A DNA stretch of 64,000 nt from Candidatus Latescibacterota bacterium (GCA_022822725.1 JAJEAN010000007.1:1125045-1189044), one strand, 5' to 3'; shown: positions 35,382 to 61,550, numbered from the stretch's first letter. The notes: a model not told the origin generated them from the letters alone. Numbers and translations: made by a program.

Positions 35382-35400
35382 AAAGCACCGCCCTGACTGA

Positions 35401-43834: not shown

Positions 43835-43904
43835 AGATAGACCGAAGTCCGCTCGCTCCAATCCTTTACGTTGCACGGTGCCTTCCCGTTACACGAGGTG
43901 CGCG

Positions 43905-45560: not shown

Positions 45561-46592
45561 TTAAGTCAGCGCGCGGCGGAGTCTTCCCACCAGGTCGGGG
45601 GACGGCGTGAAGGGCAGGGCAACGACCGCCCGGTCCAACGCACTTTCGTAAATCCCCAGCATCACGGCGAAATCGCTGAGCGCCGAGTCGATGTTCAGCG
45701 GATGAACGGCGGTGTCGTCCGCCAGCCAGTCGATCATCGCTTCGGTCATCGCCGCCTGGCCGAGAACGTCCTCCTCCGCGTAGTCGTGTTCCCCGCGCGC
45801 ATGTTTATGGTCGATCCTGGATTCCCAGCCGTGCATGGTCCAGTGCACGAAACCTCGCTCCCCGTACACCGCGATCCGCTTGTGGACGTTTGCCGCTCCG
45901 CCGGGGATGACGCGCGGGGCAGTGGCGCCGCAACGCAATAACGCGCTCACGCCATTGTCGTAGTTGATGACCCCTGCGCACTCGTCCGGCGCGTAGTGGT
46001 GTCGGGGCGTTTCAGCCAGCCCTTCCGCACCGGAGACCTGCCCGAAAACGTCGACAGGCGCCGCATCGGGATTGAAAGCGCCTATGGCCTGCAGCGCGTG
46101 CGTACCCTGGTAGGCCGGGTTCATCCCGGCACTGGCCTCGATGAAGCGCAGATTCCCGATGGCGCCGTCTTTCACCAGCCTTTGCAGCCGGCTTCGGCGC
46201 GGATGGAAGTGAAGCTGGTGGTTGACGGCGATCTTGACACGGGCCTTCCGCGCGAAGTCCCTGATCGCCAGGAAATCCTCGCCCTGGATGGCCAGGGGTT
46301 TTTCGACCAGTACGGCCGGGACGCCCGCCGCCTCCGCCGCTTCGAAGATCTCCAGGCGTACAGACGGCGGCGTGTTTACATGGACCAGGTCGGGTTTCTC
46401 CCGCGCGAACATCTCGCGGTAGTCCGTGTACCGCGCAGGTACGTCGAATGCCGACCCAAACGCCTCGAGCTTGTCCCGCCGGCGACTCGATACGGCCACC
46501 AGCCGGCCGCGCTCGACGTGCCGATAGGCCTCGGCCAGCCCGCGGGCCCTCCCGCCGCTGACCCCGATGATTGCGCTCTTGATCATGCTCAT
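45561..46592 (-). CDS. Gfo/Idh/MocA family oxidoreductase
   Basis: IIGVSGG Rossmann and VEKP. The start at MSMIKS (46592) is inferred. Confidence 0.8.
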   Translation of the reverse strand: MSMIKSAIIGVSGGRARGLAEAYRHVERGRLVAVSSRRRDKLEAFGSAFDVPARYTDYREMFAREKPDLVHVNTPPSVRLEIFEAAEAAGVPAVLVEKPLAIQGEDFLAIRDFARKARVKIAVNHQLHFHPRRSRLQRLVKDGAIGNLRFIEASAGMNPAYQGTHALQAIGAFNPDAAPVDVFGQVSGAEGLAETPRHHYAPDECAGVINYDNGVSALLRCGATAPRVIPGGAANVHKRIAVYGERGFVHWTMHGWESRIDHKHARGEHDYAEEDVLGQAAMTEAMIDWLADDTAVHPLNIDSALSDFAVMLGIYESALDRAVVALPFTPSPDLVGRLRRALT

Positions 46593-46644
46593 GTTCGACT
46601 CGCCCGTTCGACGGTACGCGCCCCGGATGGTACCGGCAAGCACT

Positions 46645-47664
46645 TCAGGACCAGGGCTGGATGACGACCTTCGCGCATTCGCCGGTCACCTGCGTTTCCC
46701 AAGCCTGCTGGATATCGTCCAGGGGAAACAGGTGAGTGATGAATCGATCCAGTTTTTCCGGATTCCGCGCGATGACGCCCATGATGTCGTGGGCGCCCTT
46801 CATGTTGTAATGCCAGGACCCCTTCAGATCGATGCCCTTGCGGATCATGTCGGGACTTACGACCAGCCGCGTTTCCGAGCCGCTCTCGCCGACGAAAGCG
46901 AGGCTCCCTCTCCTGCGCAGTGCGTCAATGCAGAACCTGTGTGCGGCCGGCGAACCCGAGCAATCGATGGCCTTGTCCACCCCGATGCCGCCGGTCAGGT
47001 CGCGTATGCGTTCCATCGCGTGTTCGTCCCGGGGATCGATGACGTAGGCAGCGCCCAGTTCCCTGGCCTTCAAAGTTCGGTAGGGATGGGATTCCACGGC
47101 AATGACCTCGGCGCCCAGATGGCCGGCGCAGATCACGCCGCCCAGGCCTACCGGACCCATCCCGGTGATCAGTACGGTCTCGCCGCCGCGGACTCGCAGG
47201 CGGTCCAGCGCGCCGAACGTCGGTCCCAGCCCGCAGCAGGCCATGGCCCCGTGCTCATAGGACATGCCATCGGGGATCGGCGTCAGCAGCCAGTCCGGCT
47301 TGAGCATGTACTGGGCCAGGGTCGCCATCCCTTCTTCAGAACCGGTAAACCCGGCGAAATCCACGCCGTTTTCGCAGTGTATGTAGTCGCCGGAACGGCA
47401 TAGCGAACAGCCTCCGCAAGGATACCCCGGCATGACCACCACCCGGTCTCCCACCTGCGCCCGACCAGGCTGCGCGACCTCGACGACTTCGCCGGACGCC
47501 TCGTGGCCGAGATAGTCCGCCCTGTTGCCGGCGGCAAATCCCTTATACTCGGTGCAGAGCGGCGCCGCGTGTATCTTGATCAGTACCCAGTTATCCTTCG
47601 GTTTCGGTATGGCGGCCTCTACGATCCCGCCCTGCGTTTTGCCCAGAATTACCGCTCTTTTCAC
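46645..47664 (-). CDS. Zinc-dependent MDR alcohol/polyol dehydrogenase
   Basis: GHEASGEV and C-x2-C-x2-C-x7-C structural zinc; GMGPVG Rossmann. It lies 1 nt upstream of the Gfo gene. Confidence 0.85.
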   Translation of the reverse strand: MKRAVILGKTQGGIVEAAIPKPKDNWVLIKIHAAPLCTEYKGFAAGNRADYLGHEASGEVVEVAQPGRAQVGDRVVVMPGYPCGGCSLCRSGDYIHCENGVDFAGFTGSEEGMATLAQYMLKPDWLLTPIPDGMSYEHGAMACCGLGPTFGALDRLRVRGGETVLITGMGPVGLGGVICAGHLGAEVIAVESHPYRTLKARELGAAYVIDPRDEHAMERIRDLTGGIGVDKAIDCSGSPAAHRFCIDALRRRGSLAFVGESGSETRLVVSPDMIRKGIDLKGSWHYNMKGAHDIMGVIARNPEKLDRFITHLFPLDDIQQAWETQVTGECAKVVIQPWS

Positions 47665-47797: not shown

Positions 47798-49045
47798 ATG
47801 AGCAGACTCTACCACAACGAGTCCGGCCGGGTCATTCCCGCGTTTTGCGAGGAACTTACCCGGTTCCGGCGGGCCCGTGTCATCCTCGATCTGCCGGCAA
47901 CCCGGTCAGACGCGGTCCTGTTCGTGCTGGTCCGGCCCCATCGGGTCGACGGCAATCCGCTGAACTGGTCTGTCAACGGGGTTCGTCAGGCGGATATCGA
48001 TGCGGAGCCGGATCTCCACTACAGATGGTACGAGGGAACCGTTAAGGCCGGTGACCTGCGCGAAGGAGACAACGTGGTGGAGCTATGGACCGAAGACCGC
48101 GCGATGACGGGGTGGTCGCTCGCGCTGGAGGCCGGCGGCGCCCGGTCACGCTGTGCACTGACCGACGATGGCGGAACCAACTGGCGCTACGACCGTATGG
48201 GATACCTGAACGCGGTCCAGGGGAATTACTGCGTGCGTGTCCGGCTGCAGGAAGGCCGGGACGACCCGCCTCCCGAGATGGCGTGGGAATCCGTCGATCA
48301 TCCCAGGGTACGGTCGCTCCGAGATCTTCTCCCGCGCGGCGCCAGGAACGGCTCCGATCGGTATGCCCAGGTACGGGAGCTGTCTTCCTGGCTGGCTTCG
48401 AGCTGGGAGCATTCAGGATCCGCACGGGCGACGGCCTACACGCCCTGGGACGCCGAAACCATTCTCGCCTGGGGCGGCAGCCGGCGCGGTCACAATGGCG
48501 AGCGCCCCATTGCCATGTGCGTGCATTACGCCGTAGCCTTTGTCAGTGCCTGCCAGGCGCTTCGGATTCCGGCGCGCTGCGCGATACTGATGGGCACGCC
48601 GAACAGCTTCGAAGGCCATTTCGTGGCGGAGGTATGGTTCGACGAGTATCGGAAATGGGTGATGGTCGACCCGAACTGTGACGCAATCCTTTTCCGGAAT
48701 GGGCAACCGCTGTCCATCGAAGAAATTCAGGCATTGGGAGACCGGCTGGAACCATACGTGGAATGGGGCAGGGGTTCGAGGTACCAGCGGACCTTCGCTC
48801 ACATACGTGCATTCATTCGAACCAGTCTGCTTCGGGGAGTGTGTTTCCGGCACCGAAGCGTCTGGCCGCGGACGGACTTCCTGTCCCATCCCGAGTTTTC
48901 TCCGCCCGGTCACGGGTCGGTATCCTACTGTGAGACCGACCTGGTCTGGACGGAAAAGGACGTGGAGGACGGATTCGGGATGTTCCGGTATTTTGCGCCG
49001 GCCGCTTACTTTACGGCGCCACCCGACAGGGCCGCCTATGCCTGA
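47798..49045 (+). CDS. Transglutaminase-like (papain-fold Cys-His-Asp) domain protein
   Basis: Catalytic Cys context IAMCVHYAVAFVSACQALRIPARC, His in GHFVAEVWF and Asp in WVMVDP. Confidence 0.7.
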   Translation: MSRLYHNESGRVIPAFCEELTRFRRARVILDLPATRSDAVLFVLVRPHRVDGNPLNWSVNGVRQADIDAEPDLHYRWYEGTVKAGDLREGDNVVELWTEDRAMTGWSLALEAGGARSRCALTDDGGTNWRYDRMGYLNAVQGNYCVRVRLQEGRDDPPPEMAWESVDHPRVRSLRDLLPRGARNGSDRYAQVRELSSWLASSWEHSGSARATAYTPWDAETILAWGGSRRGHNGERPIAMCVHYAVAFVSACQALRIPARCAILMGTPNSFEGHFVAEVWFDEYRKWVMVDPNCDAILFRNGQPLSIEEIQALGDRLEPYVEWGRGSRYQRTFAHIRAFIRTSLLRGVCFRHRSVWPRTDFLSHPEFSPPGHGSVSYCETDLVWTEKDVEDGFGMFRYFAPAAYFTAPPDRAAYA

Positions 49046-50051
49046 TCTGATCACGAGTGAAGAACTGCTGATCGACCGGATGACGGCCCCGTCGCAACGG
49101 GTCACCGAGGCCGTATCGGAACTGGACGGCGACGTGGCGATCCTGGGCGTCGGCGGCAAGATGGGACCGACGCTGGCGGAACTCCTCGTGCGGGCCGGCG
49201 CCCGGCGTGTGATCGGCGTCTCCCGGTTCAGCGACGCCATGGTAAAAGCCTACCTGGAAGACGCGGGCGTGGAAACGGTTCAGGCGGACCTGCTTGACGA
49301 GGCGGACCTGGCCCGTCTGCCCGATGCCGCAAACATCCTCTTTCTCGCGGGATTCAAGTTCGGCGCCACGGGCAACACGCCGATGACGTGGGCGATGAAC
49401 GCATGGCTGCCCGGCCGGATCATGCGCCGGTATGCCGGCTCCCGTATCATCTATGTCAGTTCGGGCAACGTGTACGCCTATTCACCGGTAACCGGAGCCG
49501 GCTCCGACGAAGAGGCCGAAATCGGACCGGTAGGCGAATACGCCCAGTCGAGACTGGGTGGAGAACGCATCACCGAGCATCTCTGCGTCGAACAGGGCAC
49601 GCCCCTGCTCATCGTCCGGCTGTTTTACGCCACGGAATTGCGCTATGGCATCATGCACGACCTCGCCAGGAAGATCCACGACGACGTGCCGATCGACCTC
49701 GCCATGGGCCATGTAAACCAGATCTGGCAGGGAGACGCGAACAGCTACCTCGCGCGCTTGTTCCCGTTCTGCAGCAGTCCGGCCACGGTCCTGAATATGA
49801 CGGGACCGGATAAACTCTCCGTCCGCGGGGTGTCCGAAATGCTTGGGCGGCGAATGGAGCGTGAGCCGCTTTTTACCGGCCACGAGAGCGATACGGCGCT
49901 GCTTGGCGACGCCCGCAGACTGTTCGACAGGCTGGGCAGACCGGAGATGCCAATTGAGCGGATTGCCGACTGGGTGGCCCATTGGATTAGCATCGGGGGC
50001 CGAAGTCTCGATAAGCCCACGGGATATGAGTCCCGGTCCGGCCGTTTCTGA
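49038..50051 (+). CDS. NAD(P)-dependent epimerase/dehydratase-family oxidoreductase
   Basis: ATG at 49038 overlaps the upstream stop (ATGCCTGA); Rossmann ILGVGGKMG; 337 aa. Confidence 0.7.
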   Translation: MPDLITSEELLIDRMTAPSQRVTEAVSELDGDVAILGVGGKMGPTLAELLVRAGARRVIGVSRFSDAMVKAYLEDAGVETVQADLLDEADLARLPDAANILFLAGFKFGATGNTPMTWAMNAWLPGRIMRRYAGSRIIYVSSGNVYAYSPVTGAGSDEEAEIGPVGEYAQSRLGGERITEHLCVEQGTPLLIVRLFYATELRYGIMHDLARKIHDDVPIDLAMGHVNQIWQGDANSYLARLFPFCSSPATVLNMTGPDKLSVRGVSEMLGRRMEREPLFTGHESDTALLGDARRLFDRLGRPEMPIERIADWVAHWISIGGRSLDKPTGYESRSGRF

Positions 50052-50077
50052 ATACGGAACATGTACTGGAGTCTATC

Positions 50078-51139
50078 ATGGATACGATGATGCCCCAGGC
50101 GGTCCGGGAGGCCTTGAAAGAAGGCGTGGTGATCCCGGCTCATCCGCTGGCCGTTACGGCGGACAGGCGCCTGGATGAACGACGCCAAAGGGCGCTGACC
50201 AGATACTACATCGCAGCCGGTGCGGGCGGTCTCGCCGTGGGCGTCCACACGACCCAGTTCGAGATCCGGGGCCCGGCATACGGGCTTTACGAACCGGTGC
50301 TCGGCCTGGCCGCGGAGGTGATGGACCGGGAGGCGCCGGCGGAATTCATCCGGATCGCCGGGATCTGCGGGAAAACGGCGCAGGCGGGGCAGGAAGCGGA
50401 AACGGCACGGTCCCTCGGCTACCACGCGGGCCTGCTCAGCCTGACCGCCATGAAAGGCGCCACCGACGACGAACTCATCACGCACTGCCGGACCGTGGCC
50501 GACGTGATTCCCGTCATGGGATTCTACCTGCAGCCCGCCGTCGGCGGCCTCGTGCTCCCCTACCGCTTCTGGCGCCGCTTCGTTGAACTGGAGGGCGTCG
50601 TGGCCATCAAGGTCGCGGCCTTCAATCGGTACCACACGCTCGACGTGCTGAGAGCCCTGGCGGAATCGGGCAGGCAGGAAGAGATCACGCTTTACACGGG
50701 CAATGACGACAACATCGTGATGGACCTTCTGACGGAGCACGCGTTCCTGTGCGGCGCCGCGCGCCGATCGGTGCGGTTCAAAGGCGGGCTGCTTGGTCAC
50801 TGGGCCGTGTGGACCCGCGGAGCGGTTGAACTGCTGCGGGCATGCCACGGCGCCGCCCTGTCCGGCGAGGCCGTACCCCAAAGTCTGCTGACCCGGTCGA
50901 TCGAGGTTACGGACTGCAACGCGGCCTTCTTCGATCCGGCCCACGATTTCGCCGGATGCATCCCCGGAATACACGAGGTGCTTCGCAGGCAGGGACTGCT
51001 CGAGGGCACATGGTGCCTGAATCCGGAAGAAACGCTTTCACCAGGCCAGTACGAGGAAATAGACCGGGTATACCGCGCCTATCCTCATCTCAACGACGAT
51101 CAGTTTGTCGCCGAAAACCTGGATGACTGGCTCGGATGA
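50078..51139 (+). CDS. DapA/NAL-family class I aldolase (dihydrodipicolinate-synthase-like)
   Basis: N-terminal alignment to DapA (VVIPAHPL..GVHTTQFE) and candidate Schiff-base Lys in VAIKVAAFN. Confidence 0.65.
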   Translation: MDTMMPQAVREALKEGVVIPAHPLAVTADRRLDERRQRALTRYYIAAGAGGLAVGVHTTQFEIRGPAYGLYEPVLGLAAEVMDREAPAEFIRIAGICGKTAQAGQEAETARSLGYHAGLLSLTAMKGATDDELITHCRTVADVIPVMGFYLQPAVGGLVLPYRFWRRFVELEGVVAIKVAAFNRYHTLDVLRALAESGRQEEITLYTGNDDNIVMDLLTEHAFLCGAARRSVRFKGGLLGHWAVWTRGAVELLRACHGAALSGEAVPQSLLTRSIEVTDCNAAFFDPAHDFAGCIPGIHEVLRRQGLLEGTWCLNPEETLSPGQYEEIDRVYRAYPHLNDDQFVAENLDDWLG

Positions 51140-51186
51140 TCGGCCAGTCAGGATGAACATCTGATAAACCGGAAACGGAGCGAAAC

Positions 51187-52302
51187 GTGAAGATAACCCG
51201 AATCGAAGCCATTCCCATCGAAGTGCCGCTCAAGCAGGGCATGACCACGAAAACGGCCCATGGCGAGCACATCGTCTCCCCCTATGTCATCCTCCGGGTT
51301 CACACGGACGAGGGGCTGACCGGACTGGGCGAGGCTACGGTCGCGCCGCGCTGGAGCGGAGAAACGTCCGCCTCCTGTACCGCTGCCGTCCGGGACCTGG
51401 TGGAACCCGCGCTGAAGGGCGAGGACCCGGCGGACGTGAACCGGCTCTGCGGCGTCATGGACGAAGTCATCAAGCTGAACCCCTTCACCAAGGCGGCCGT
51501 GGAGATGGCGCTGTGGGACCTGGCCGGGAAGAGCGCGGGCAGGCCCCTCTACCAGCTGCTGGGCGGAAAGGTCCGGCAGGAAATCCCTATGAAAATGGTG
51601 GTCGGCGCCTTCGACGTACCGACTTCCGTGGCCCTGGCGGAAAAGTTCCTGCAGTGGGGCGTTCAGTGTCTCAAGGTCAAAGTGGGGCTGGACCCCGAAG
51701 AGGACCTCGAACGCGTCCGGGCGGTCCGTGCGCTGGCCGGCCCCGACATACGAATGAGCATCGACGCGAATTGCGGGTGGCCGCCGGCGGTGGCGCGCCG
51801 CATGCTTCGCCTCCTCGAACCGCTGGACATCCTCTTCGCCGAACAGCCTTCCGCACCGCAGTTCGACGATGAAGCGGCCCTGATCCGCACGGGCACGACC
51901 ATCCCCATCATGGCGGACGAAAGCGTATTCACCCTTCACGACGCCATGCAGACCGCCCTTCGCCGGTCCGCCGATATCATCAGCGTCTATCCGGGCAAGA
52001 ACGGGGGCATCGGACAGACGCTGGGCATTTCGCACGTGGCGAGCGCGGCGGGGCTGCGTTGCCACATGGGCAGCAATCTCGAGCTGGGGATCGGCACGGC
52101 GGCCATGCTTCACGTAGCGGCCAGCGTGGAAGCCATCGACAGTGAGACCTATCCCGGCGACCTCCTCGGCCCGCTGTATCATGAAGGCGATATGATCGAG
52201 ACGCCGCTGGAACTCGGACCGGTCACCGCCAGGATCCCGGACGGCCCGGGACTCGGGGTCACCCTGGATGAAGCGCAGGTCGCACGCTGGAAGGACAGAT
52301 AA
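51187..52302 (+). CDS. Mandelate racemase/muconate lactonizing enzyme family (enolase superfamily)
   Basis: KVKVG, metal ligands D (SIDANCGW), E (FAEQP) and D (MADES). Confidence 0.85.
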   Translation: MKITRIEAIPIEVPLKQGMTTKTAHGEHIVSPYVILRVHTDEGLTGLGEATVAPRWSGETSASCTAAVRDLVEPALKGEDPADVNRLCGVMDEVIKLNPFTKAAVEMALWDLAGKSAGRPLYQLLGGKVRQEIPMKMVVGAFDVPTSVALAEKFLQWGVQCLKVKVGLDPEEDLERVRAVRALAGPDIRMSIDANCGWPPAVARRMLRLLEPLDILFAEQPSAPQFDDEAALIRTGTTIPIMADESVFTLHDAMQTALRRSADIISVYPGKNGGIGQTLGISHVASAAGLRCHMGSNLELGIGTAAMLHVAASVEAIDSETYPGDLLGPLYHEGDMIETPLELGPVTARIPDGPGLGVTLDEAQVARWKDR

Positions 52303-52329
52303 ACACACCGAACCACAGAAAGGACAACC

Positions 52330-53388
52330 ATGCCTGACGATCGGACATACAGAGCCTGCGTGGTGGGCTTGAGCGGCATCGGGGCGGGGCGGCCCAATGT
52401 CGAAGGCGACCACGGAATGGGCCACGTAATGCCCAACTGCCACGTACCCGCCTATGCCCAATTACCGTTCACGGAAGTCGTCGGCGTCTGCGACCTGAAG
52501 GACGATCTCGTGCAGGGCACCCTGAAGGACTGGTCGGTCACCTTTCCCGGTTTGCGGGGGTTTGCGGACTATAGGGAAATGCTCGAAACCTGCAAGCCCG
52601 ATATTCTGAGCGTGGTCACCTCGGACCATCGCCACGCCGACATCGTCGTGGACGCGGTCGAGGCCGGCGTCCGGGGTATATATTGCGAAAAACCCATCGC
52701 CACCTCACTGGCGGACGCCGACCGCATGATCGCCGCGGTGGAGCGCGGGAACGTGCCCATGACCATCAACCACACCCGCCGCTGGGGAACGGTATACAGG
52801 GAGGTCAAGAAACTGCTCGATGACGGTGTGATCGGCGAATTGAAACGCATCGTGCTGAACTTCGGCGGTCCCAGGGCCATTCTCTTTCGCAATGGCACCC
52901 ACATGATCGATATGACCTGTTTTCTGGCGGGATCGCGGCCCGCCTGGGTTTTCGCCGAACTCGACGAAGGCTACGAGGACTACTGGCCCTACCAGGGCGA
53001 CGGCGGCCGGAACGCGGACCTGGAACCGGGCTGCTCCGGCTTCATCCATTTCGAGAACGGCGTGCGGGCCTTCTATAACGGTTCCAAGGGACGGGAATGC
53101 CGCGGAGGATACCAGCTGGACGGCACCGACGGATGGATGTTCGTCCACGAGGACTATTACGAGATCGACAAGGGTGACGGGATCCAGACCATCGCGCCGA
53201 AGGGACCGACCCATTACTATTCTTCGGCCGCCGTCCGGGACCTCGTCCACGTCATGGAACACGGCGGGGAAACCGTCTCGCCGCCGCGCGCGGCGCGGGA
53301 CACCCTGGAGATCATCCTGGGCTTCCTCGCGTCGCAGAAGCACGGCAACGTACGCATCGATTTTCCGCTGGACGAAAACGCCGTATAA
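52330..53388 (+). CDS. Gfo/Idh/MocA family oxidoreductase
   Basis: CVVGLSGIG and CEKPIA. Confidence 0.8.
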   Translation: MPDDRTYRACVVGLSGIGAGRPNVEGDHGMGHVMPNCHVPAYAQLPFTEVVGVCDLKDDLVQGTLKDWSVTFPGLRGFADYREMLETCKPDILSVVTSDHRHADIVVDAVEAGVRGIYCEKPIATSLADADRMIAAVERGNVPMTINHTRRWGTVYREVKKLLDDGVIGELKRIVLNFGGPRAILFRNGTHMIDMTCFLAGSRPAWVFAELDEGYEDYWPYQGDGGRNADLEPGCSGFIHFENGVRAFYNGSKGRECRGGYQLDGTDGWMFVHEDYYEIDKGDGIQTIAPKGPTHYYSSAAVRDLVHVMEHGGETVSPPRAARDTLEIILGFLASQKHGNVRIDFPLDENAV

Positions 53389-53411
53389 ATTGCCATGAGT
53401 GATCACCGGCC

Positions 53412-55454
53412 ATGAGCGTTCGCATCGCCATAGACACGGGCGGCACGTTTACCGATCTCGTCCTGTCCGATCCCGGGACGGGCCGCCTGGTGTTCCACAA
53501 GGTGCCGAGCACGCCGGCCGATCCGAGCCGGGCGCTGGTGGACGGGGTCAAGGACCTCGTCAACCGGGCCGGCGTCGCGCATGAGGATATCCTGTTCCTC
53601 ATACACGGCACCACGGTGGCTACCAATACCATCCTGCAGCGGCAGGGCGCCCACACGGCCTTCATTACCACCGAGGGCTTCCGGGACGTGCTCCATATAC
53701 AGCGGCAGGACCGGCCCCACCTGTACAACATGCGTGTTCGCCGGCCCCCCGCCCTCGTGCCCCGGTCCCTGCGGTATGAACTGCCGGAGCGCATCCTGTA
53801 CGACGGATCGGAAGCGCTTCCCGTAAACACGAATCGACTGGAAGAACTGGTGGAATCGCTCAGGGCGGAAGGGATAGAAGCGGTCGGCATCGGGTTGCTG
53901 CACAGCCATATCAATCCCGAACACGAGCGGTCCGTCGGCGCAGTGCTGCGGCGGGCGCTGCCGGACGCCACCGTCTGCCTCTCATCCGATCTGAGCCGGG
54001 AAGAAGGCGAATACGAGCGGTTCAGCACCTGTGCCATGAACGCCTACGTGCAGCCGGTGATGACGAACTACCTGAAACGGGTGAACGATGCGCTGTCCGA
54101 GGCTTCAGTCGCCGCGCCGCTATACGTAATGAAGTCAAACGGCGGAGTCACTTCGGCCGAGCACGCCGCCGATCATTGCGTGCATACGTTCCTGTCGGGC
54201 CCGGCCGGCGGTGTGGTGGCCGGCGCGGAGATCGGCCGGCGGCTCGATCGCCCCAACCTCATTACGGCCGACATGGGCGGGACCAGCTTCGACGTGGCCA
54301 TGATCCATAAACGGAATATCGCCTTCGCGAAGAACGCGGAAATAGACGGACTGGCCCTGAAGGCGCCGATGATGGATATACACACGATCGGTGCGGGAGG
54401 CGGAAGCATCGCGTGGATCGATTCCGGCGGTGCCCTGCGGGTGGGACCGCGATCCGCGGGGGCCAGGCCGGGCCCCGCCTGCTACCCGAAAGGTGGCGAC
54501 GAACCCACGGTGACGGACGCGAACCTGGTGCTGGGCCGGCTCTCGACAGACAGCCTGCTGGGCGGCGCGATTACCCTCGATCCGTCCTCCGCCCGGCGTG
54601 TGATCGAGCACAAGATAGCCTCCAGGCTGAACTGTACCGTGGAGGAAGCCGCCGAAGGCATCATCCGGGTGATCAACGCCTCCATGACGGCGGCCATCCG
54701 CAAGCTCACCGTGGAACGGGGATACGATCCGCGCCGGTTCACGCTGGTGCCCTTCGGCGGCGCGGGACCGCTTCACGGCGTCGAACTCGCCCGGGAACTG
54801 GACGTAAGCGACATAGTAGTTCCCCTTGCGCCCGGCGTCGCCTCGGCCGAGGGCCTGGTTTTCTCGAATTTGCGATCGGACAGGATCCAGACGCACGTGG
54901 AATTGCTGGCAAGGCTCGAGGAAACTGAATTCGAGAAGATGCTGGAAGACCTGGCCGTGCAGGCGGCGGGGGACTTGACTTCCTCGGCGGAGGCAAGCGA
55001 TCCGGTAATCAGCAGGCGTGTAGGCCTCAGATACGCGGGACAGGGCTACGACATTCCGATCGATCTGCCTGGTGGTCCCGTTGACCTTCCTGCCCTCGAA
55101 TCGGCCTTTCATGTCGAACACGAGCGGCAGTACGGCTTCGCGCGCCGGGATCAGCGGGTCCAACTGGTCAACATATGGGTTTCCGCGGAATTGCCGATCT
55201 CGGACGACCTGCGCAGACCCTCGGAACGGGCCGAATCAAAGCAGCCCGCACCGCGTTCCACCCGCCCCGTCTACCTGTCCGGCAACTGGCACGAAACGGC
55301 TGTCTACGAACGGTCCCGGTTGCGTCCGGGCCAGCGGATCGAAGGACCGGCCATCATAGAGCAGCTTGATTCGACGACGTTGATCTGGCCCGGTGGGCAC
55401 GCCTGTATAGATGCCTGGGATCAGATCGCCGTCGCGGGTGTGGAGACGCCATGA
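53412..55454 (+). CDS. hyuA: Hydantoinase/oxoprolinase family, A subunit (ATP-dependent cyclic amide hydrolase)
   Basis: IAIDTGGTFTD N-terminus, DMGGTSFD; 680 aa. Confidence 0.85.
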   Translation: MSVRIAIDTGGTFTDLVLSDPGTGRLVFHKVPSTPADPSRALVDGVKDLVNRAGVAHEDILFLIHGTTVATNTILQRQGAHTAFITTEGFRDVLHIQRQDRPHLYNMRVRRPPALVPRSLRYELPERILYDGSEALPVNTNRLEELVESLRAEGIEAVGIGLLHSHINPEHERSVGAVLRRALPDATVCLSSDLSREEGEYERFSTCAMNAYVQPVMTNYLKRVNDALSEASVAAPLYVMKSNGGVTSAEHAADHCVHTFLSGPAGGVVAGAEIGRRLDRPNLITADMGGTSFDVAMIHKRNIAFAKNAEIDGLALKAPMMDIHTIGAGGGSIAWIDSGGALRVGPRSAGARPGPACYPKGGDEPTVTDANLVLGRLSTDSLLGGAITLDPSSARRVIEHKIASRLNCTVEEAAEGIIRVINASMTAAIRKLTVERGYDPRRFTLVPFGGAGPLHGVELARELDVSDIVVPLAPGVASAEGLVFSNLRSDRIQTHVELLARLEETEFEKMLEDLAVQAAGDLTSSAEASDPVISRRVGLRYAGQGYDIPIDLPGGPVDLPALESAFHVEHERQYGFARRDQRVQLVNIWVSAELPISDDLRRPSERAESKQPAPRSTRPVYLSGNWHETAVYERSRLRPGQRIEGPAIIEQLDSTTLIWPGGHACIDAWDQIAVAGVETP

Positions 55455-57142
55455 AGACCGACCCCATTACGCTGGAGCTGATGCGCAACCGGTGGACGGG
55501 CATCGCGGAAGAAATGTGCGCCGCCCTGATCCGCACCAGTTACTCCACCAACATCAAGGACCGCCGGGACTGCTCCGCGGCCATCGTGCAGCCCACGGGG
55601 GAGATCCTGGCCCAGGCCGAATCGGGCGTGCCGCTCCATCTCGGCGTGATGCCCGGGGTAGTCCGGTCCATCCTGGAAGCCTACCCCGTGTCGGTCATGC
55701 GGCCAGGCGACGTCTATATCACGAACCTGCCGTATCCGGAAGGACCGGGGCATCTGCCGGACGTTTCCCTGGTCTCCGCCATATTTCACGAAGGGCGACC
55801 CATCGCGCTCGCGGCATCCACCGCCCACCACGTGGACATGGGCGGGTTCGCACCCGGCAGCATGCCTTTCGGAGTGACGGAAATCTACCAGGAGGGGCTG
55901 CAGATCCCTCCGCTTCCCATCTTCAAAGAGGGACGGCTCGACGAAGAGATCTATAAACTGATCAACCAGAACGTGCGGACGCAGTACGAAGTGCGCGGGG
56001 ACTTGATGGCCCAGTTCGCCTGCGCCCAGATCGGCCAGCAGCGGGTGAGTGAGCTCATGTCCCGGGAGTCTCCGGCTGAAGTCATTCGCTACATGGACGA
56101 GATCCAGGACTATGCGGAACGCAGGATGCGCGCGGGGATAGGGACCCTTCCGGACGGCGCGTATACCTTCGAGGATTACCTGGACGACGACGGGGTCACC
56201 GATGAGCCGGTTAAAATCATGGTCACCCTGACTGTCTCGGGCGACGCGTTGCGCGCGGATTTCTCAGGGAGCAGCGACCAGGTCCTGGGTCCGCTGAACG
56301 CACGTCTGCCGGCGGCCCATTCCTGCATCAGCTACGTCTGCAAGGCGGTGATCGATCCCGATCTGCCTGCCTGCGCCGGGGCGTACAGGCCCCTGGATAT
56401 CTTCGCCCCGGAGGGTTCCATCCTACAGGCTACCTACCCCGCGGCCATCGGCAATGCCAATATCCTGACGGACCAGCGCGTCGTGGACGTGCTGATGGGC
56501 GCACTGTACCAGGCTGCGCCCGGCCGGGTGTGCGCGGCCTGCAGCGGCGAGATGAACCTGGTCAATATCGGCGGGATCGATCCCGCTTCCGGGGATTACT
56601 ACAACTACGTGGAAACCTATGCAGGCGGCCAGGGCGCCATGTACGACCTCGACGGCGAAGACGGCGTGCATACCCACCTCACCAACACGCGGAACGCGCC
56701 GGTCGAAGTCATGGAGCGCACTTACCCGCTGAGGGTCGAGCGGTACGGCCTGATCCCCGACACCGACGGACCAGGACGCCGGCGCGGCGGTTGCGGCATG
56801 ATGCGGGAACTGAAGTGCCTGGGAGAACGCACCATCATCACGCTGGGATCCGACCGGCGGAAATTCACGCCGTGGGGCCTCGAAGGCGGCGGCAACGCGA
56901 CGGGCGCCCACTGTTACGTCATCGACACCGAAGGACGCGAGAAGGAAATACCTACCAAGGCCCACACCGAACTGTACAAAAACGACGTCCTGAGGATCGA
57001 GACGCCCGGCGGCGGCGGCTGGGGAGACCCGGCGGAGCGGGACCGCACCATGGTGCAGGAGGACGTCCGGAACGGGCTCGTAAGCGAGAAAAGGGCGAAC
57101 GAACAGTACGGTTGCAGGCAGGACCGGAAACCGGAAAACTGA
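55451..57142 (+). CDS. hyuB: Hydantoinase/oxoprolinase family, B subunit
   Basis: 4 nt ATGA overlap with hyuA; Hydantoinase_B fold; 563 aa. Confidence 0.85.
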   Translation: MKTDPITLELMRNRWTGIAEEMCAALIRTSYSTNIKDRRDCSAAIVQPTGEILAQAESGVPLHLGVMPGVVRSILEAYPVSVMRPGDVYITNLPYPEGPGHLPDVSLVSAIFHEGRPIALAASTAHHVDMGGFAPGSMPFGVTEIYQEGLQIPPLPIFKEGRLDEEIYKLINQNVRTQYEVRGDLMAQFACAQIGQQRVSELMSRESPAEVIRYMDEIQDYAERRMRAGIGTLPDGAYTFEDYLDDDGVTDEPVKIMVTLTVSGDALRADFSGSSDQVLGPLNARLPAAHSCISYVCKAVIDPDLPACAGAYRPLDIFAPEGSILQATYPAAIGNANILTDQRVVDVLMGALYQAAPGRVCAACSGEMNLVNIGGIDPASGDYYNYVETYAGGQGAMYDLDGEDGVHTHLTNTRNAPVEVMERTYPLRVERYGLIPDTDGPGRRRGGCGMMRELKCLGERTIITLGSDRRKFTPWGLEGGGNATGAHCYVIDTEGREKEIPTKAHTELYKNDVLRIETPGGGGWGDPAERDRTMVQEDVRNGLVSEKRANEQYGCRQDRKPEN

Positions 57143-57238: not shown

Positions 57239-58000
57239 TCAGTAGAGGCCCGGTACCAGGGCCCTGCGATTTGCCGGATAATCGCTGAACGTTTCCCGGT
57301 ACCATCGGTGGTTGCTCCGTGCCCGCGGGGCGAGATTGGCGATGGCGAACAGCATGAATGCAAGGCCGCACGACGACCAGGTGGCGACCGCCCAGCCTGC
57401 CCATTCGAGGATTTCCCCCAGGTAGTTCGGACACGAGACGAAGCGGAACCCGCCGCCCCGCGGTATCGCATAGCCCGTCTCACCGGGCCGGCGCAGGCGC
57501 ATGAGCGTGTTGTCGGCGTGGAGGTTGAGCGCGAACCCGGCGAGGAATATCCCGACCCCGATCAGGAAGCGGGGGTCGGCGATCCATTCAGTGGCGTACT
57601 CGCCGAATTCCGAAACGAAGCGGGCGTTGATGTACGCGTTGACCGCATTGAACAGAAAGCCGGAGCCGACCACCACAAGGGGCGTCTTCCGGCCGCTTGC
57701 CCGGACACGAAACGGATAGACGAAGGTCCGGTTCAGATAGTGGCCCTGCCACATGGCCAGGAACAGCAGCGGCACGAACTGGAACGCGCCCTTGCCATTG
57801 AGATAGACGACGAGGAAGACCGCGGGTGCCGGCAACTCCATGATGATCCACGCGAGCCTGGCGGAAACGTGTGGCCCCCAGCCCGCACCCGCGTAGTGGC
57901 GTCCGTAGGGCGCGGTCCTGCGTAGCAGGTACAGGAACGTCACGGGCGCCGACGCAATGATCGCCCATATCAGTATCCCGTGCAGACGTTCTTCGGTCAT
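57239..58000 (-). CDS. Steroid 5-alpha-reductase/DUF1295 family membrane NADPH reductase
   Basis: 253 aa, about 6 TM, C-terminal FRFVSCPNYLGEILEWAGWA typical of 3-oxo-5-alpha-steroid 4-dehydrogenase C-terminal domain. Its start abuts the upstream stop (58000/58001). Confidence 0.7.
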   Translation of the reverse strand: MTEERLHGILIWAIIASAPVTFLYLLRRTAPYGRHYAGAGWGPHVSARLAWIIMELPAPAVFLVVYLNGKGAFQFVPLLFLAMWQGHYLNRTFVYPFRVRASGRKTPLVVVGSGFLFNAVNAYINARFVSEFGEYATEWIADPRFLIGVGIFLAGFALNLHADNTLMRLRRPGETGYAIPRGGGFRFVSCPNYLGEILEWAGWAVATWSSCGLAFMLFAIANLAPRARSNHRWYRETFSDYPANRRALVPGLY

Positions 58001-59029
58001 TCACGCCTCTTCACTCAGCATGCCGTGTTCGTCGAACCAGCGGTACGTGTCCTCTATCGATTCCGCGAGCGAGCGCGGGTTGAACCCGAGTTCCGCCCGC
58101 GCCTTGGTGCTGGATATCCGCCGATTGGCATGGGCCATGACGCGGACGGATGCTGGCGTGTAGAGCGGAGGACGTCCACGAAACCGATCCAGGACGACCT
58201 GGAAGGGTGCCCATACCCGGGCGGCGAAAATGGGGAACTGGAGGCGGGGTGCGGCTACTCCGGTCGCCTGCTCGCAAAGCTCCGCCAGTTCTTGCACGGT
58301 GTGCCAGTTTCCTGACAGCAGGTAGTTCTCTCCACATCTCCCCTGAGTCTCTGCGGCTATCGCGGCCGACGAGACATCGCGCACGTCAACCCAGTCGTAA
58401 CCACCTGCGATCAGCGCGGGAAGCCGCCTGCGGCGGAGGTCGAGAAACAGCTGCCCCATCGGCGACGGAGCGCCGTCATAGGGGCCGATCACGCTGGTCG
58501 GATTCAGGATCACGGCATCGAGGCCGCGGTCGATGCCGCAACGGACTTCCGCTTCGCCGGCGGCTTTCGAACGGTCGTAAGGCGCGGCGCGGCGGCTGTC
58601 GGCCGGACGGCGGCTTTCATCGAGCACTTCGTCCAGCGGGTGCTGGTCGAACGCGTGGATGGAGGAAACGTGAACCAGGCGCCGTACACCGCATGCAAGG
58701 GCCGCTTCCACGACATTGCGGGTGCCCAGGACATTCGTGCGATGGAAATCCCGGGCCCTTACGGTGCCGATCGAGACCAGCGCGGCCAGATGGAACACGG
58801 TTTCCGCGCCCGTGAAGGCCGCGATCAGCGATTCCTTGTCGAGCAGGTCGCCATTGACCCATGTAATGCCGAGATCCGCCACGGTCCCTCGACGCTTCCG
58901 GAAGGTCGCACGGACCCGGCGGGGCCCGTACTTGTCGGCAAGAGCCCGTGCCAATACCCCGCCGATCTGCCCGCTCGCACCCGTAATCACCCGTACGCTG
59001 TGAGGCCGTCCGTCGTCAGATGATCTCAT
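58001..59029 (-). CDS. Extended-SDR, 3beta-hydroxysteroid-dehydrogenase/NAD-epimerase family
   Basis: ATG at 59029; ITGASGQIGG; NVLGTRNVVEAA (3beta-HSD-like); YDRSK catalytic dyad. Confidence 0.7.
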   Translation of the reverse strand: MRSSDDGRPHSVRVITGASGQIGGVLARALADKYGPRRVRATFRKRRGTVADLGITWVNGDLLDKESLIAAFTGAETVFHLAALVSIGTVRARDFHRTNVLGTRNVVEAALACGVRRLVHVSSIHAFDQHPLDEVLDESRRPADSRRAAPYDRSKAAGEAEVRCGIDRGLDAVILNPTSVIGPYDGAPSPMGQLFLDLRRRRLPALIAGGYDWVDVRDVSSAAIAAETQGRCGENYLLSGNWHTVQELAELCEQATGVAAPRLQFPIFAARVWAPFQVVLDRFRGRPPLYTPASVRVMAHANRRISSTKARAELGFNPRSLAESIEDTYRWFDEHGMLSEEA

Positions 59030-59094
59030 TGCGAATGACTCGATCCGCGAATCGTAGACCGGACCAGGCGCTGGAGAAGCAGGCTCATGCGAAC

Positions 59095-61122
59095 TCAGGT
59101 TCGCAATTCGTGCCGCTGCTCGGCGATCCTGAACTTTAGTTTGTTGCTGGGCGACTGCGAGGGGAAGGGGTCCATCGGCAACCGCTTGTAGGGGCGGGCC
59201 AGTTCGAGCTTGTAGTAATGCGTGAGCATCAGCAGGTTGATCGCCATGTGCATGTTGGCCCATCGGTGCCCGAGACAGGAGTGCGTGCCCAGTCCGAAAG
59301 GCGCGTAGCCTTTGCCAAGGTGCTCGTTTCGCGGGGGCACGTAGCGGTCGATGTCGAAGGTCTGTGGATCGGGAAACGCCTCTTCCAGGTAGTGCGTGGC
59401 CGTCTGTGCAATCACGAGTTGCGTCCCGACCGGTAATTCGAAACCCACCACCACGCAGGTATTCATCACCGTGCGCATGGCCATGGGCGCGATCGGACTC
59501 ATCCGCAGCGTCTCCATCAGCACCCGGTGGGTCACGTCGATCCGGTCCGGCTTGAAGTCGTCCTCGCCGGGATCGCCATCAGCCCACAGCGCGTCCGCTT
59601 CGGCCGTGACCCGCTCGTACAGATCAGGATTCTGCAGCAGCCAGTAAAGGGCGAAGCCAACCTGGTCGCCCAGGTACATGGCGGTCATCAGGATCGCCCC
59701 CAGCGGCAGCGACAGGTCCGATTCGGGAAGGAACTGGGGATCCGTCGCGTGCAGGGCCAGATACGCGTCCACCACGTCCTTATGCATCCCGACCCTTTGC
59801 GCGGCCGTATGTGTACTTTGCATACGTTCCATGATCCGTTTCATGGTTTTAGCCCGACGGCGCATCGACGGGGTTTTGAGCATGAAACGCGGCAGCATCT
59901 TCATGATGCCTACATTGAGCACCCGTGCCTTGTATTTAAGCGCGTCGACGATCTCGGCCTGCGTGTCAATGCTGGCGAAGAGCGGCGAAGACTGCGCGTT
60001 CAGCAATGGCCGCAGCATCACCTGCGACGGCATCGTGCTGCCGACGTCCCAACCCGCCATGTGCGCGCGGGTCAGGTCATAGACCTCGTCCAGGCGGTCG
60101 GTCAAGGTCTTGCGAGAGTATGCGGGCTGGAGCGACTTGCGAAAACGAAAGTGATCGGCCCCGTCAACCGAATGCATCGAGCGCGACACGCCGTACGCCC
60201 TGTCCACCTCCTCGAAGTACTCCTTGGACCGCAGGAACACGCGCCCCATGCGTTGGGCCCATTCATTCGTCTTCACCCCCGCCAGGAAGATGATGTTCTT
60301 GCGGAACGGGATCCGTAGCTCGAACACCGGACCATACTTTTCAGCCAAAATGGCGAACGCTGACGGCAGCCTGCCCGCTATCAGCTCGCGGTTGAATACC
60401 AGGTCACGCAGGGCCACGGCTGGAATCGGCTTGGTCAACGAGGGCTGGCGAAGCGAGGGCGCGACGATGCTCTGGCCCACCGCCGCCGCAATCGCCCGCC
60501 CGATCAGTTCCATCTTGCAGATAAATTCAACCCGCTCTTCCGCCTCCTCATCCAGTTGGAAAATGAAGCGCATGACATCGCAGGTATTTAACAGGCAAAT
60601 AACGATGATGTCTCTGGGCTCGGGAATCTCGTTCAGGAAGATCGCCTTGCTGATGCGCGTCTTGATGAATTGGCCCGCGCTACCTTCCTGGGAGTCGCTG
60701 GACTGGTCCGTGTGCCAGACAGAAGGAGCCAGTGTCCAGAAGTCGCCCTCGTGGTGTTCCAGGATCTTCTGGTCAACCATGCGATCAAGCACGGAATCTA
60801 TGATAGACTCCGCACGGGGAGCGAGTTTTTCTATCCAGTACTGCGTGTTGTGTTTAACGGATTCGCTTGCGATTTCTTCCAGTATGTCGTCCAGGGTGGT
60901 GTTTCCCGTTTCCCTCCGGTCCACCAGGAACAGGGACTCCATGTCCGTATCGATGCGAGATCTCAGCGAAAGTTCCCCGAGCACCGCGCCGACCACGGCG
61001 CAGTTCAGATTCCAGCCGGGCACCTGATGGAAGTACCCCGTCTCCTCGTTGAGGAGCATCAGGATGAATTCCTGGGTCAGCGTTAATGGTTGGGTCTTCA
61101 CTGCTTCTGTAGGAGTAGCCAT
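59095..61122 (-). CDS. Fusion protein: N-terminal GPP34/GOLPH3-like domain plus C-terminal cytochrome P450
   Basis: ATG at 61122 with GGAG upstream. Residues ~10-230: PLTLTQEFILMLLNEETGYFHQVPGWNLNCAVVGAVLGELSLRSRI aligns with the GOLPH3 motif [44 protein letters not shown]. The C-terminus carries ETLR, FDIDRY and heme-loop FGLGTHSCLG. The I-helix reads LGDQVG (no conserved Thr). Confidence 0.7.
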   Translation of the reverse strand: MATPTEAVKTQPLTLTQEFILMLLNEETGYFHQVPGWNLNCAVVGAVLGELSLRSRIDTDMESLFLVDRRETGNTTLDDILEEIASESVKHNTQYWIEKLAPRAESIIDSVLDRMVDQKILEHHEGDFWTLAPSVWHTDQSSDSQEGSAGQFIKTRISKAIFLNEIPEPRDIIVICLLNTCDVMRFIFQLDEEAEERVEFICKMELIGRAIAAAVGQSIVAPSLRQPSLTKPIPAVALRDLVFNRELIAGRLPSAFAILAEKYGPVFELRIPFRKNIIFLAGVKTNEWAQRMGRVFLRSKEYFEEVDRAYGVSRSMHSVDGADHFRFRKSLQPAYSRKTLTDRLDEVYDLTRAHMAGWDVGSTMPSQVMLRPLLNAQSSPLFASIDTQAEIVDALKYKARVLNVGIMKMLPRFMLKTPSMRRRAKTMKRIMERMQSTHTAAQRVGMHKDVVDAYLALHATDPQFLPESDLSLPLGAILMTAMYLGDQVGFALYWLLQNPDLYERVTAEADALWADGDPGEDDFKPDRIDVTHRVLMETLRMSPIAPMAMRTVMNTCVVVGFELPVGTQLVIAQTATHYLEEAFPDPQTFDIDRYVPPRNEHLGKGYAPFGLGTHSCLGHRWANMHMAINLLMLTHYYKLELARPYKRLPMDPFPSQSPSNKLKFRIAEQRHELRT

Positions 61123-61467: not shown

Positions 61468-61499
61468 TTGCAAAAAGGCCCATCGCCCGGGCATATAAT
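61468..61499 (+). promoter_or_regulatory. Candidate promoter for the Rieske oxygenase gene
   Basis: TTGCAA at 61468-61473 and a perfect TATAAT at 61494-61499. The spacer is 20 nt (suboptimal). It sits in an AT-rich patch of a 428 bp divergent intergenic region. Confidence 0.3.
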
Positions 61500-61550
61500 T
61501 ACAGGATCCTTCACTGCACCTGCAGACGGCCACGGCGCCCTTACGGATGT

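Follow-up and report, generated by a model that had tools for sequence, protein, structure and literature searches.

What does a compact bacterial operon do when its seven genes belong to known enzyme superfamilies but their arrangement matches no characterised pathway? This question is raised by a 64,000-nucleotide stretch of DNA from Candidatus Latescibacterota bacterium (GCA_022822725.1 JAJEAN010000007.1:1125045-1189044), referred to here as the window. Positions 47,798 to 57,142 of the window encode, in this order, a transglutaminase (TGase)-like protein, an atypical extended short-chain dehydrogenase/reductase (SDR), a protein resembling dihydrodipicolinate synthase (DHDPS) and N-acetylneuraminate lyase (NAL), an enolase-superfamily enzyme of the mandelate racemase/muconate-lactonizing enzyme type (MR/MLE), a Gfo/Idh/MocA oxidoreductase (Gfo_op), and HyuA and HyuB, the two subunits of a putative ATP-dependent hydantoinase, oxoprolinase or lactamase (Table 1). 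The seven genes are a real, conserved, co-oriented operon of a catabolic type. We tentatively prefer the reading that the operon breaks down a sugar-acid-like compound which bears nitrogen and is in part a cyclic amide. A preliminary description of the window had proposed the catabolism of cyclic amides or amino-acid derivatives; the catabolic type of the operon is borne out, and the substrate stays conditional.

The gene boundaries of that description, with tightly packed plus-strand genes that overlap by 8 and 4 nt or stand 23-47 nt apart, were confirmed exactly. The successive spacings are -8, +26, +47, +27, +23 and -4 nt. The ATG of the SDR gene at 49038, which was read directly, lies within the 8-nt overlap with the stop of the TGase-like gene, and the start of HyuB overlaps the stop of HyuA by 4 nt. 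As read from the sequence, both overlaps imply translational coupling. Promoter-like and terminator-like matches inside the operon do not rise above what chance would give (no promoter-like site was found, and six terminator-like matches as compared with 5.7 expected), and no RNA element or riboswitch that could hint at a ligand was detected at the Rfam gathering thresholds. The GC content is flat across the region (0.63-0.64), so the region is not marked as an island. Pfam agrees with all seven family assignments made earlier, and the catalytic residues are intact, with the exception of the canonical lysine of the SDR.

Recurrence of one and the same order across many genomes takes the arrangement beyond chance. 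With a profile for the TGase-like family, 80 species-representative loci were obtained and mapped by tblastn with 16 window proteins; the whole comparison sampled 160 loci. Nineteen close relatives carry the complete seven-gene order, together with the divergent genes for a Zn-dependent alcohol dehydrogenase (Zn-ADH) and a second Gfo/Idh/MocA protein (Gfo_up) and those for a LarA homologue and an RraA-like protein, at 71-98% protein identity; in two further operon copies (L018, L028), contig ends cut the locus short. The arrangement is also complete in L045, a much diverged Gemmatimonadota genome with 55-72% identity, which raises the number of complete species-level genomes with all seven genes in order to 20, and a metagenome scan with HyuB added another diverged copy (L109, 59-78% identity). 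The flanks of both diverged loci differ from those of the window, and in L045 they include a D-amino-acid oxidase (DAO)-family gene, a Na:Ala symporter and a major facilitator superfamily transporter. The window comes from a marine metagenome-assembled genome whose relatives are labelled Gemmatimonadota, and many of these relatives, judging by their isolate names, are metagenome-assembled genomes from sponges or corals. The objection that the order might be conserved in no relative therefore does not hold. As the greedy longest-open-reading-frame (ORF) caller used for neighbour clustering sometimes picks the wrong strand, these conclusions rest on the tblastn maps and the Pfam-annotated gene calls.

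The earlier idea that the seven genes form a single pathway did not survive in its strict form. The following observations show that the operon is a composite of three separately inherited modules, namely TGase-like plus MR/MLE, SDR plus DHDPS-like, and Gfo_op plus HyuAB, and that its seven steps are not inseparable. An MR/MLE orthologue (61-67% identity, as compared with 25-30% for paralogues) is located immediately upstream of the TGase-like gene in seven other species. One locus (L140) consists of the SDR, DHDPS-like, Gfo, HyuA and HyuB genes only, and it has its downstream synteny in common with L109, where the TGase and MR/MLE genes are not adjacent; the two genes were lost together. Two loci (L014, L037) have the TGase, SDR, MR/MLE and Gfo genes beside those for RraA, LarA, Gfo and Zn-ADH, and have no DHDPS-like or HyuAB genes. 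Finally, 12-18 genomes mostly labelled Latescibacterota (L048, L053 and L092, for example) contain parallel clusters, in which the TGase-like gene, in some cases together with the MR/MLE orthologue, is accompanied by genes for an Amidase, a DMFase-beta-like protein (DMFA2_C, 529 aa), Amidohydro_2, Peptidase_C26, Gfo/Idh/MocA, classical DHDPS-family and UxuA-like proteins and an unannotated protein of about 880 aa. The parallel clusters repeat the same enzymatic themes, with hydrolytic amidases in the place of HyuAB.

Such modularity might mean that the genes are co-transcribed without belonging to one pathway, the operon being a catabolic 'island' of independent two-gene modules that act on different substrates. 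Each module can indeed be found without the others (L014/L037, L140, L001/L003, L015-L017 and L048-type loci), and no shared regulator or transporter gene lies beside the operon. The identical gene order and tight spacing, however, persist at 55-78% identity despite the different flanks of L045 and L109, the non-adjacent TGase and MR/MLE genes are gained or lost together, Gfo_op invariably adjoins HyuA in its HyuAB clade, and the overlaps imply coupled translation. We consider an island of this kind unlikely.

To our knowledge, very few physiological substrates of ATP-dependent HyuAB-type lactamases have been established. The HyuA translation holds the ATP motifs DTGGT, DMGGT and GARPGP, and that of HyuB the His/Asp metal-site residues in GHLPD and AHHVD; the HyuB translation has no CC dipeptide and thus lacks the vicinal Cys-Cys of the caprolactam-type beta-subunit pocket (criteria from caprolactamase and its relatives, PMC8453981). 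The closest PDB entry for both subunits is 7hk5 (486 bits for HyuA, 286 for HyuB), followed by the caprolactamase subunits (6yra_A, 419 bits; CapB, 196 bits). Both proteins remain under every NCBIfam equivalog cut-off, those for caprolactamase included (CapA, 560 vs 1000 bits; CapB, 264 vs 1000 bits), and the NCBIfam scan of the operon proteins returned no oxoprolinase equivalog. On these matches, HyuAB is placed in the hydantoinase/oxoprolinase/lactamase family but in none of its characterised branches. As in the caprolactamase CapAB of P. jessenii (6YRA), the 5-oxoprolinase OplAB/OPLAH and the N-methylhydantoinase/HyuAB of Pseudomonas sp. NS671, there are two subunits encoded by translationally coupled genes, with the ATP motifs (DxGGT, DMGGT, GxxPGP) in HyuA, the His/Asp metal site in HyuB and strong sequence matches. 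Unlike those systems, the operon has none of their partner genes (carbamoylase, racemase, 6-aminohexanoate aminotransferase), and HyuAB is set among enzymes of a sugar-acid type. The preliminary description could name no pathway for this combination, and we likewise find no characterised HyuAB pathway that accounts for the operon; a literature search on the enzyme combination returned nothing relevant.

The history of HyuAB can be followed through its relatives. HyuB proteins of 53-75% identity occur in Planctomycetota, Verrucomicrobiota and marine metagenomes, where the module comprises HyuA, an Asp_Glu_race racemase, HyuB and a DAO-family FAD oxidoreductase, to which a class-V aminotransferase may be added; at least 17 loci have this module (including L015-L017, L110-L112, L114, L122, L129, L132, L134, L146, L147, L153 and L178). 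In a neighbour-joining tree, all Gfo-linked HyuB proteins form one clade that is nested inside this racemase/DAO-linked radiation, and Gfo_op lies directly upstream of HyuA in every clade member for which upstream DNA is available. The nesting indicates a single recruitment of this HyuAB, which has kept Gfo_op directly upstream of it since then. The tree thus points to HyuAB as a late recruit from a racemase/FAD-oxidase context.

This ancestry brings to mind a classical hydantoin or N-methylhydantoin (creatinine) route, in which the hydantoinase produces an N-carbamoyl amino acid that is then hydrolysed. Such a route would agree with the family membership of HyuAB, with the deposition of 7hk5 as 'N-methylhydantoinase', with the racemase-family (Asp/Glu/hydantoin) gene between hyuA and hyuB in the nearest related loci, and with the enrichment of hyuA/hyuB COGs in sponge symbionts, where hydantoin use or host colonisation has been put forward as a guess only (PMC5649159). 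However, neither an N-carbamoyl-amino-acid amidohydrolase (M20, CN_hydrolase or isochorismatase-type) nor a creatinine deaminase or sarcosine oxidase is encoded in the operon or by any of the scanned ORFs of the window. A tblastn search of the window with the racemases of related HyuAB loci gave nothing; the racemase gene is present only in other HyuAB lineages, and no remnant of it was found in the hyuA-hyuB interval of L109, L045 or the window. In L109, about 300 nt of AT-rich non-coding DNA (9700-10000) lie between the two genes, which do not overlap there. None of the known hydantoin routes has a place for the other five genes. The classic hyu/creatinine route was rejected because no carbamoylase, racemase or oxidase was found, and we regard it as very unlikely.

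As HyuA and HyuB are also homologous to carboxylase subunits, and as the aldolase and the SDR are reversible in principle, the operon might instead carboxylate its substrate in the manner of acetone or acetophenone carboxylase, or build a specialised metabolite. The acetone carboxylase alpha subunit gives only a weak, partial match of 48 bits to HyuB, which has 563 aa as compared with about 776 aa, and no gamma-subunit-like gene is found among the ORFs called. There are no genes for nonribosomal peptide synthetases, polyketide synthases, glycosyltransferases or export, and the neighbours are dehydrogenases and aldolases of a catabolic type. A carboxylating or biosynthetic function is therefore most improbable.

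The first module contains a further enzyme that may act on amide bonds. The residues C241, H274 and D291 of the TGase-like protein are invariant across 20 homologues and form a Cys-His-Asp triad on a TGase-core fold. Its AlphaFold2 model (pLDDT 83) consists of an N-terminal beta-sandwich followed by the TGase core, with no signal peptide. The best Foldseek matches of the model are animal transglutaminases and Rad4, and its N-terminal domain resembles the beta-sandwiches of CBM35, PA14 and rhamnogalacturonan lyase. The family profile has no match among PDB sequences, and the protein has none in NCBIfam. No TGase-like orthologue was found in plasmids of cultured bacteria, where the closest MR/MLE proteins reach at most 38% identity.

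The MR/MLE motifs LKVKVG (strand-2 KxK), SIDAN/FAEQP/MADES (the D/E/D metal ligands) and YPGKNGG (the second, strand-6 lysine) align with those of 2p88, 1jpm and 3i4k and place the enzyme in the MLE subgroup. The best PDB match is 2p88, an N-succinyl-Arg/Lys racemase. All NCBIfam equivalog scores are below their cut-offs: the highest is that of muconate cycloisomerase (TIGR02534, 216 vs 335 bits), with no catechol-pathway genes near the operon; the second is that of cis-3-hydroxy-L-proline dehydratase (142 bits), and the L-Ala-D/L-Glu epimerase (AEE) models give 122/500 and 82/343. Of the assignments considered beforehand, dipeptide epimerase is not supported: the DxD motif, which follows strand 8 and reportedly binds the substrate ammonium in dipeptide epimerases, is not kept (GDLLGPL vs FDFDAPL in 1jpm, the second Asp being gone). 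A murein-peptide/dipeptide-epimerase reading is weakened by its absence. N-acyl-amino-acid racemases of the N-succinylamino acid racemase (NSAR) type are encoded with an acyltransferase and a deacylase, and the dipeptide epimerases YkfB/YcjG with murein-peptide peptidases. In the operon, too, a two-lysine MLE-subgroup enzyme, closest to 2p88, is paired with an amide-bond enzyme, but the partner has a transglutaminase fold and is not a GNAT, M20 or NlpC/P60 protein.

The SDR of the second module has a Rossmann motif (GVGGKMGP) and an FS(S/T)GNVY motif, and it keeps the tyrosine of YxxxK while the lysine is replaced. Comparison of the window protein with its orthologues in L001, L003, L014, L045 and L098-L104 gave YAQSR (Y-A-Q-S-R-L-G-G) for the window clade and Y-A-x-S-C-(L/V)-(G/A)-R for other phyla, including cultured bacteria, so that an arginine at position +4 or +7 from the tyrosine covaries. 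The Ser-Tyr-Lys signature of classical and extended SDRs is thus absent. The closest PDB match is the TerB oxidoreductase alone (E 3e-5). The name given to this protein earlier, NAD epimerase/dehydratase, holds at the level of the Pfam Epimerase family, and the canonical lysine does not. In the DHDPS-like protein, K178 is invariant and Y150 nearly so; they align with the Schiff-base lysine and the catalytic tyrosine of NAL, Lys165 and Tyr137. In place of the carboxylate-binding motif GxTGE, the sequence VHTTQF is invariant across the family. The DapA, NanA and KdgD equivalogs of NCBIfam do not match the protein, and the best PDB matches of the family profile are NAL (1e-7) and DHDPS (7e-7). 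The DapA/NAL-type assignment was thus correct for the superfamily; judged by these matches, the protein is a member of a deep-branching, uncharacterised subfamily of DHDPS/NAL.

The SDR plus DHDPS-like pair is widespread. It recurs, with 38-46% identity for the SDR and 58-71% for the DHDPS-like protein, in at least six phyla, including Planctomycetota (Pirellulales, Aquisphaera), Acidobacteriota, Alphaproteobacteria (Nitratireductor, Tistrella), Bacillota (Paenibacillus, Mesobacillus) and Actinomycetota (Rhodococcus, Streptomyces). The pair is always found in carbohydrate contexts, in seven cultured genomes among others. Its neighbours encode sugar ABC and TTT transporters, LacI, ROK, AraC and TetR regulators, Gfo/Idh/MocA and sugar-phosphate isomerase proteins, GNATs, and esterases including acetylxylan esterase. 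The DHDPS-like gene of L007 is followed by one for an aldehyde dehydrogenase. Cultured Streptomyces, Paenibacillus, Rhodococcus, Mesobacillus, Tistrella, Nitratireductor and Aquisphaera carry the module at 58-63% identity, so that the function of the pair can be approached genetically without culturing Gemmatimonadota.

Two themes, carbohydrate or hydroxy acid on the one hand and amide or amine on the other, run through all of these contexts, and it is for this reason that we propose a nitrogen-bearing, sugar-acid-like substrate. The carbohydrate theme would be represented by Gfo_op, whose best PDB matches are DgpA glycoside 3-oxidoreductase (6e-17), scyllo-inositol dehydrogenase and GFOR; by the likeness of the DHDPS-like protein to NAL; by the CBM-like N-terminal domain in the model of the TGase-like protein; by the carbohydrate neighbours of the SDR plus DHDPS-like pair; and by the LarA homologue, which is nearest to the NCBIfam LarAH14/15/16 family (502 bits, cut-off 740) and is 84-98% identical in relatives. 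A D-gluconate 2-epimerase, LarAH15, belongs to this family (PMC11770544). The hydroxy-acid or sugar-acid connection that was first suspected from the upstream genes is thereby strengthened. The amide theme is suggested by the HyuAB motifs, the TGase triad, the amidases of the parallel clusters, the racemase, DAO and aminotransferase genes of the HyuAB radiation, the GNATs beside the SDR plus DHDPS-like pair, the DAO and Na:Ala symporter of L045, and the upstream SBP_bac_5 and M14-like genes of the window. The L045 DAO is only 22-27% identical to those of the related HyuAB loci, so that its link to them is weak.

By combining these observations, it is possible to outline how the operon might work; superfamily membership is the basis for inferring the substrate class, the sequence of steps and each single reaction. 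The substrate would be a sugar acid with an amido or amino group, or a polyhydroxy compound related to it, and would be present in part as a stable cyclic amide. Together, Gfo_op and HyuAB would couple an NAD(P)-dependent oxidation to the ATP-driven opening of a lactam-type ring, in analogy to a sugar 1-dehydrogenase and its lactonase, the ring bond being C-N. HyuA would phosphorylate the lactim and HyuB hydrolyse it, as has been proposed for caprolactamase and oxoprolinase. The MR/MLE enzyme would abstract the alpha-proton of a carboxylate, leading to epimerisation, beta-elimination or cycloisomerisation, and the TGase-like enzyme would cleave or transfer an amide or acyl group. After a redox step by the SDR, the DHDPS-like enzyme could form a Schiff base through Lys178 and split a 2-oxo-3-deoxy acid into pyruvate and an aldehyde. 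The Zn-ADH, Gfo_up, the LarA-type epimerase and the RraA-like aldolase might then handle the aldehyde and hydroxy-acid products, or provide a related entry route.

Two known systems come near to this scheme. The closest precedent by gene context is the octopine Ti plasmid (NC_002377), where genes for an FAD oxidoreductase, HyuA and HyuB lie beside an ABC transporter; these are agaE-agaF-agaG, reportedly the genes of agropinic and mannopinic acid catabolism. A literature search gave no confirmation of these functions, and the layout of NC_002377 is what supports the precedent. In agropinic-acid catabolism of this kind, HyuAB would open the lactam of an N-(polyhydroxyalkyl)-5-oxoproline, a compound that is both a 'sugar' and a 'cyclic amide', and the related HyuAB loci show the same pairing of HyuAB with DAO. 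However, the operon HyuB is only 37.7% identical to its counterpart in the aga region, an FAD oxidase is missing from the operon of the window and lies nearby in L045 and L011, and the TGase, MR/MLE, SDR and DHDPS-like genes have no counterpart on the plasmid. The second system is the oxidative, non-phosphorylative breakdown of sugar acids, in which a sugar dehydrogenase and a lactonase are followed by an enolase-superfamily dehydratase or cycloisomerase and a DHDPS-family aldolase or dehydratase, as in the Udh-Gli-Gci-KdgD route for uronate. The operon has an extended SDR, an enolase-superfamily and a DHDPS-family enzyme in common with that route, as well as the logic of oxidising, opening a ring, dehydrating and cleaving, and the parallel TGase clusters contain Amidohydro_2 and UxuA-like genes. 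Unlike the uronate route, the operon has an ATP-dependent C-N hydrolase in the place of the lactonase and an extra Cys-His-Asp enzyme of an amidase type. Membership in the Udh/Gci/KdgD pathway itself was rejected, as the SDR matches only TerB and the DHDPS-like protein only NAL and DHDPS, weakly.

Several points weigh against a single route for a nitrogen-bearing sugar acid. The five-gene variant L140 has no obvious dehydratase that could make the 2-oxo-3-deoxy acid. The SDR lacks the canonical catalytic lysine and, for this reason, may be something other than a conventional dehydrogenase. The existence of modular variants might point to different substrates and not to one pathway, and no sugar transporter, regulator or riboswitch adjoins the operon. 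Moreover, the upstream SBP_bac_5, M14-like, PhyH and Ldh_2 genes and the hydroxyproline-dehydratase match of the MR/MLE enzyme would fit peptide or proline substrates equally well.

The last point leads to the possibility that the substrate is an N-heterocycle derived from an amino acid, or a D-amino-acid or peptide derivative, of the proline, hydroxyproline or pyroglutamate type, plausibly from host collagen or peptidoglycan. HyuAB would then be a (substituted) 5-oxoprolinase and the TGase-like protein a peptidase or deacylase. The MR/MLE enzyme would be an epimerase or dehydratase comparable to hydroxyproline-betaine epimerase, cis-3-hydroxyproline dehydratase or the N-acyl-amino-acid racemases, and the DHDPS-like protein would correspond to pyrroline-4-hydroxy-2-carboxylate deaminase or 4-hydroxy-2-oxoglutarate aldolase. 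This would agree with the racemase, DAO and class-V aminotransferase genes beside the nearest HyuAB relatives, with the best PDB match and the second NCBIfam match of the MR/MLE enzyme, with the upstream genes just named, as the Ldh_2 family includes pyrroline-2-carboxylate reductases, with the DAO and symporter genes that adjoin the L045 operon, with the aldehyde dehydrogenase of L007, and with the sponge and coral origin of many genomes. On the other hand, it does not account for the carbohydrate contexts of the SDR plus DHDPS-like pair in the seven cultured genomes, and it leaves four polyol- or sugar-type dehydrogenases and the gluconate-epimerase-like LarA unexplained. The DHDPS-like protein has no NCBIfam equivalog, the MR/MLE enzyme lacks the DxD motif, no proline-racemase-type epimerase is found in the window, and the operon contains no DAO. 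Such a substrate is the main rival to a sugar-acid-like compound, and a possibility that we find somewhat doubtful.

The breakdown of a nitrogen-bearing sugar-acid-like compound can also be put in a more specific, and rather improbable, form: the operon might encode an undescribed oxidative pathway of marine Gemmatimonadota, many of them living with sponges or corals, in which a HyuAB lactamase takes the lactonase's place and gives access to N-heterocycles from sugars or to amido sugar acids. The substrate might be an aldonolactam, an oxidation product of an iminosugar, an agropinic-acid-type N-(polyhydroxyalkyl)-5-oxoproline or a cyclisation product of a de-N-acetylated nonulosonic acid. If this were true, first functions would be obtained for the 415-aa protein with its CBM-like domain and TGase core, for the 'VHTTQF' subfamily and for the Tyr-Arg/Cys SDR, and the enrichment of hyuAB in sponge symbionts would be explained. 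These three families appear to have no characterised member, with no NCBIfam match and no close solved structure. The operon as a whole is an arrangement of known superfamilies, one of many uncharacterised catabolic clusters, and not categorically new. It nevertheless sets one HyuAB clade in a defined and conserved enzymatic context with three separable modules. A solved function would annotate thousands of entries now called 'dihydrodipicolinate synthase family protein' and would add a new route for the turnover of nitrogen-containing carbohydrates or heterocycles.

Table 1. The seven operon genes and other features of the window (positions counted from the first nucleotide of the window)
Feature	Position	Strand	Match
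Transglutaminase-like Cys-His-Asp protein, 415 aa	47798-49045	+	Pfam Transglut_core, 46 bits
Atypical extended SDR, 337 aa	49038-50051	+	Pfam Epimerase, 45 bits
DHDPS/NAL-like class I aldolase-fold protein, 'VHTTQF' subfamily, 353 aa	50078-51139	+	Pfam DHDPS, 24.5 bits (weak; cut-off 22.1 bits)
Enolase-superfamily MLE-subgroup enzyme (MR/MLE), 371 aa	51187-52302	+	Pfam MR_MLE_N, MR_MLE_C
Gfo_op, Gfo/Idh/MocA NAD(P) oxidoreductase, 352 aa	52330-53388	+	Pfam GFO_IDH_MocA
HyuA, ATP-binding subunit, hydantoinase/oxoprolinase/lactamase type, 680 aa	53412-55454	+	Pfam Hydant_A_N, Hydantoinase_A, Hydant_A_C
HyuB, hydrolytic (metal-site) subunit, 563 aa	55451-57142	+	Pfam Hydantoinase_B, 619 bits
Zn-ADH, Zn-dependent alcohol/polyol dehydrogenase, divergent from operon	46645-47664	-	Pfam ADH_N, ADH_zinc_N
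Gfo_up, second Gfo/Idh/MocA oxidoreductase	45561-46643	-	Pfam
LarA-superfamily (nickel-pincer nucleotide-dependent) 2-hydroxy-acid isomerase homologue	43878-45500	+	Pfam Lar_N
RraA-like class II aldolase/decarboxylase-family protein, TAT-like N-terminus	42892-43680	-	Pfam RraA-like, TAT_signal
Ldh_2 dehydrogenase	38177-39184	+	Pfam
M14-like protein, 909 aa	35401-38130	+	Pfam Peptidase_M14 (weak)
Two PhyH dioxygenases	33716-35381	+	Pfam
SBP_bac_5 solute-binding protein	31829-33655	+	Pfam
3-oxo-5alpha-steroid 4-dehydrogenase family protein	57239-58000	-	
Extended SDR	58001-59263	-	HpnA, 217 bits; sterol demethylase SdmB, 203 bits
GPP34 + cytochrome P450 fusion, 706 aa	59095-61215	-	
Rieske/KshA_C oxygenase	61551-62639	+	4beta-methylsterol monooxygenase SdmA (weak)
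Further catabolic-looking genes	14455-24406		
MR_MLE_C-only protein, among the preceding	17267-18526		

The genes upstream of the operon are as the preliminary description stated: the Gfo/Idh/MocA and Zn-ADH pair and the LarA homologue were all found by Pfam. The Zn-ADH gene stays with the operon in the close clade and is also kept in L014/L037, and the NCBIfam matches of the protein, threonine 3-dehydrogenase and scyllo-inosose 3-dehydrogenase, are below cut-off. The same is true of the matches of the RraA-like protein to CHA aldolase/oxaloacetate decarboxylase; its gene is conserved in relatives and in L014. The twin-arginine translocation (TAT) signal-like N-terminus of this protein is unusual for a cytoplasmic family. 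Further upstream, the series SBP_bac_5, PhyH, PhyH and Ldh_2 is repeated in relatives and in L014, and Ldh_2 is present in 15 close relatives. The genes at 31829-39184, with the M14-like gene among them, are at most candidate members of the pathway. The SBP_bac_5 gene has no gene for an ABC permease or ATPase next to it.

At a greater distance upstream, the additional catabolic-looking genes encode an M81/MlrC-like metallopeptidase, a classical SDR, the MR_MLE_C-only protein, a ceramidase-like protein, a DUF6785/DUF6784 membrane protein, an Oxidored_FMN protein and a GH113 glycoside hydrolase. Directly downstream of the operon, a sterol-type gene set occupies positions 57239-62639. Its matches suggest that it may serve sterol modification in sponge-associated Gemmatimonadota, and the relatives keep the Rieske and GPP34-P450 genes nearby.

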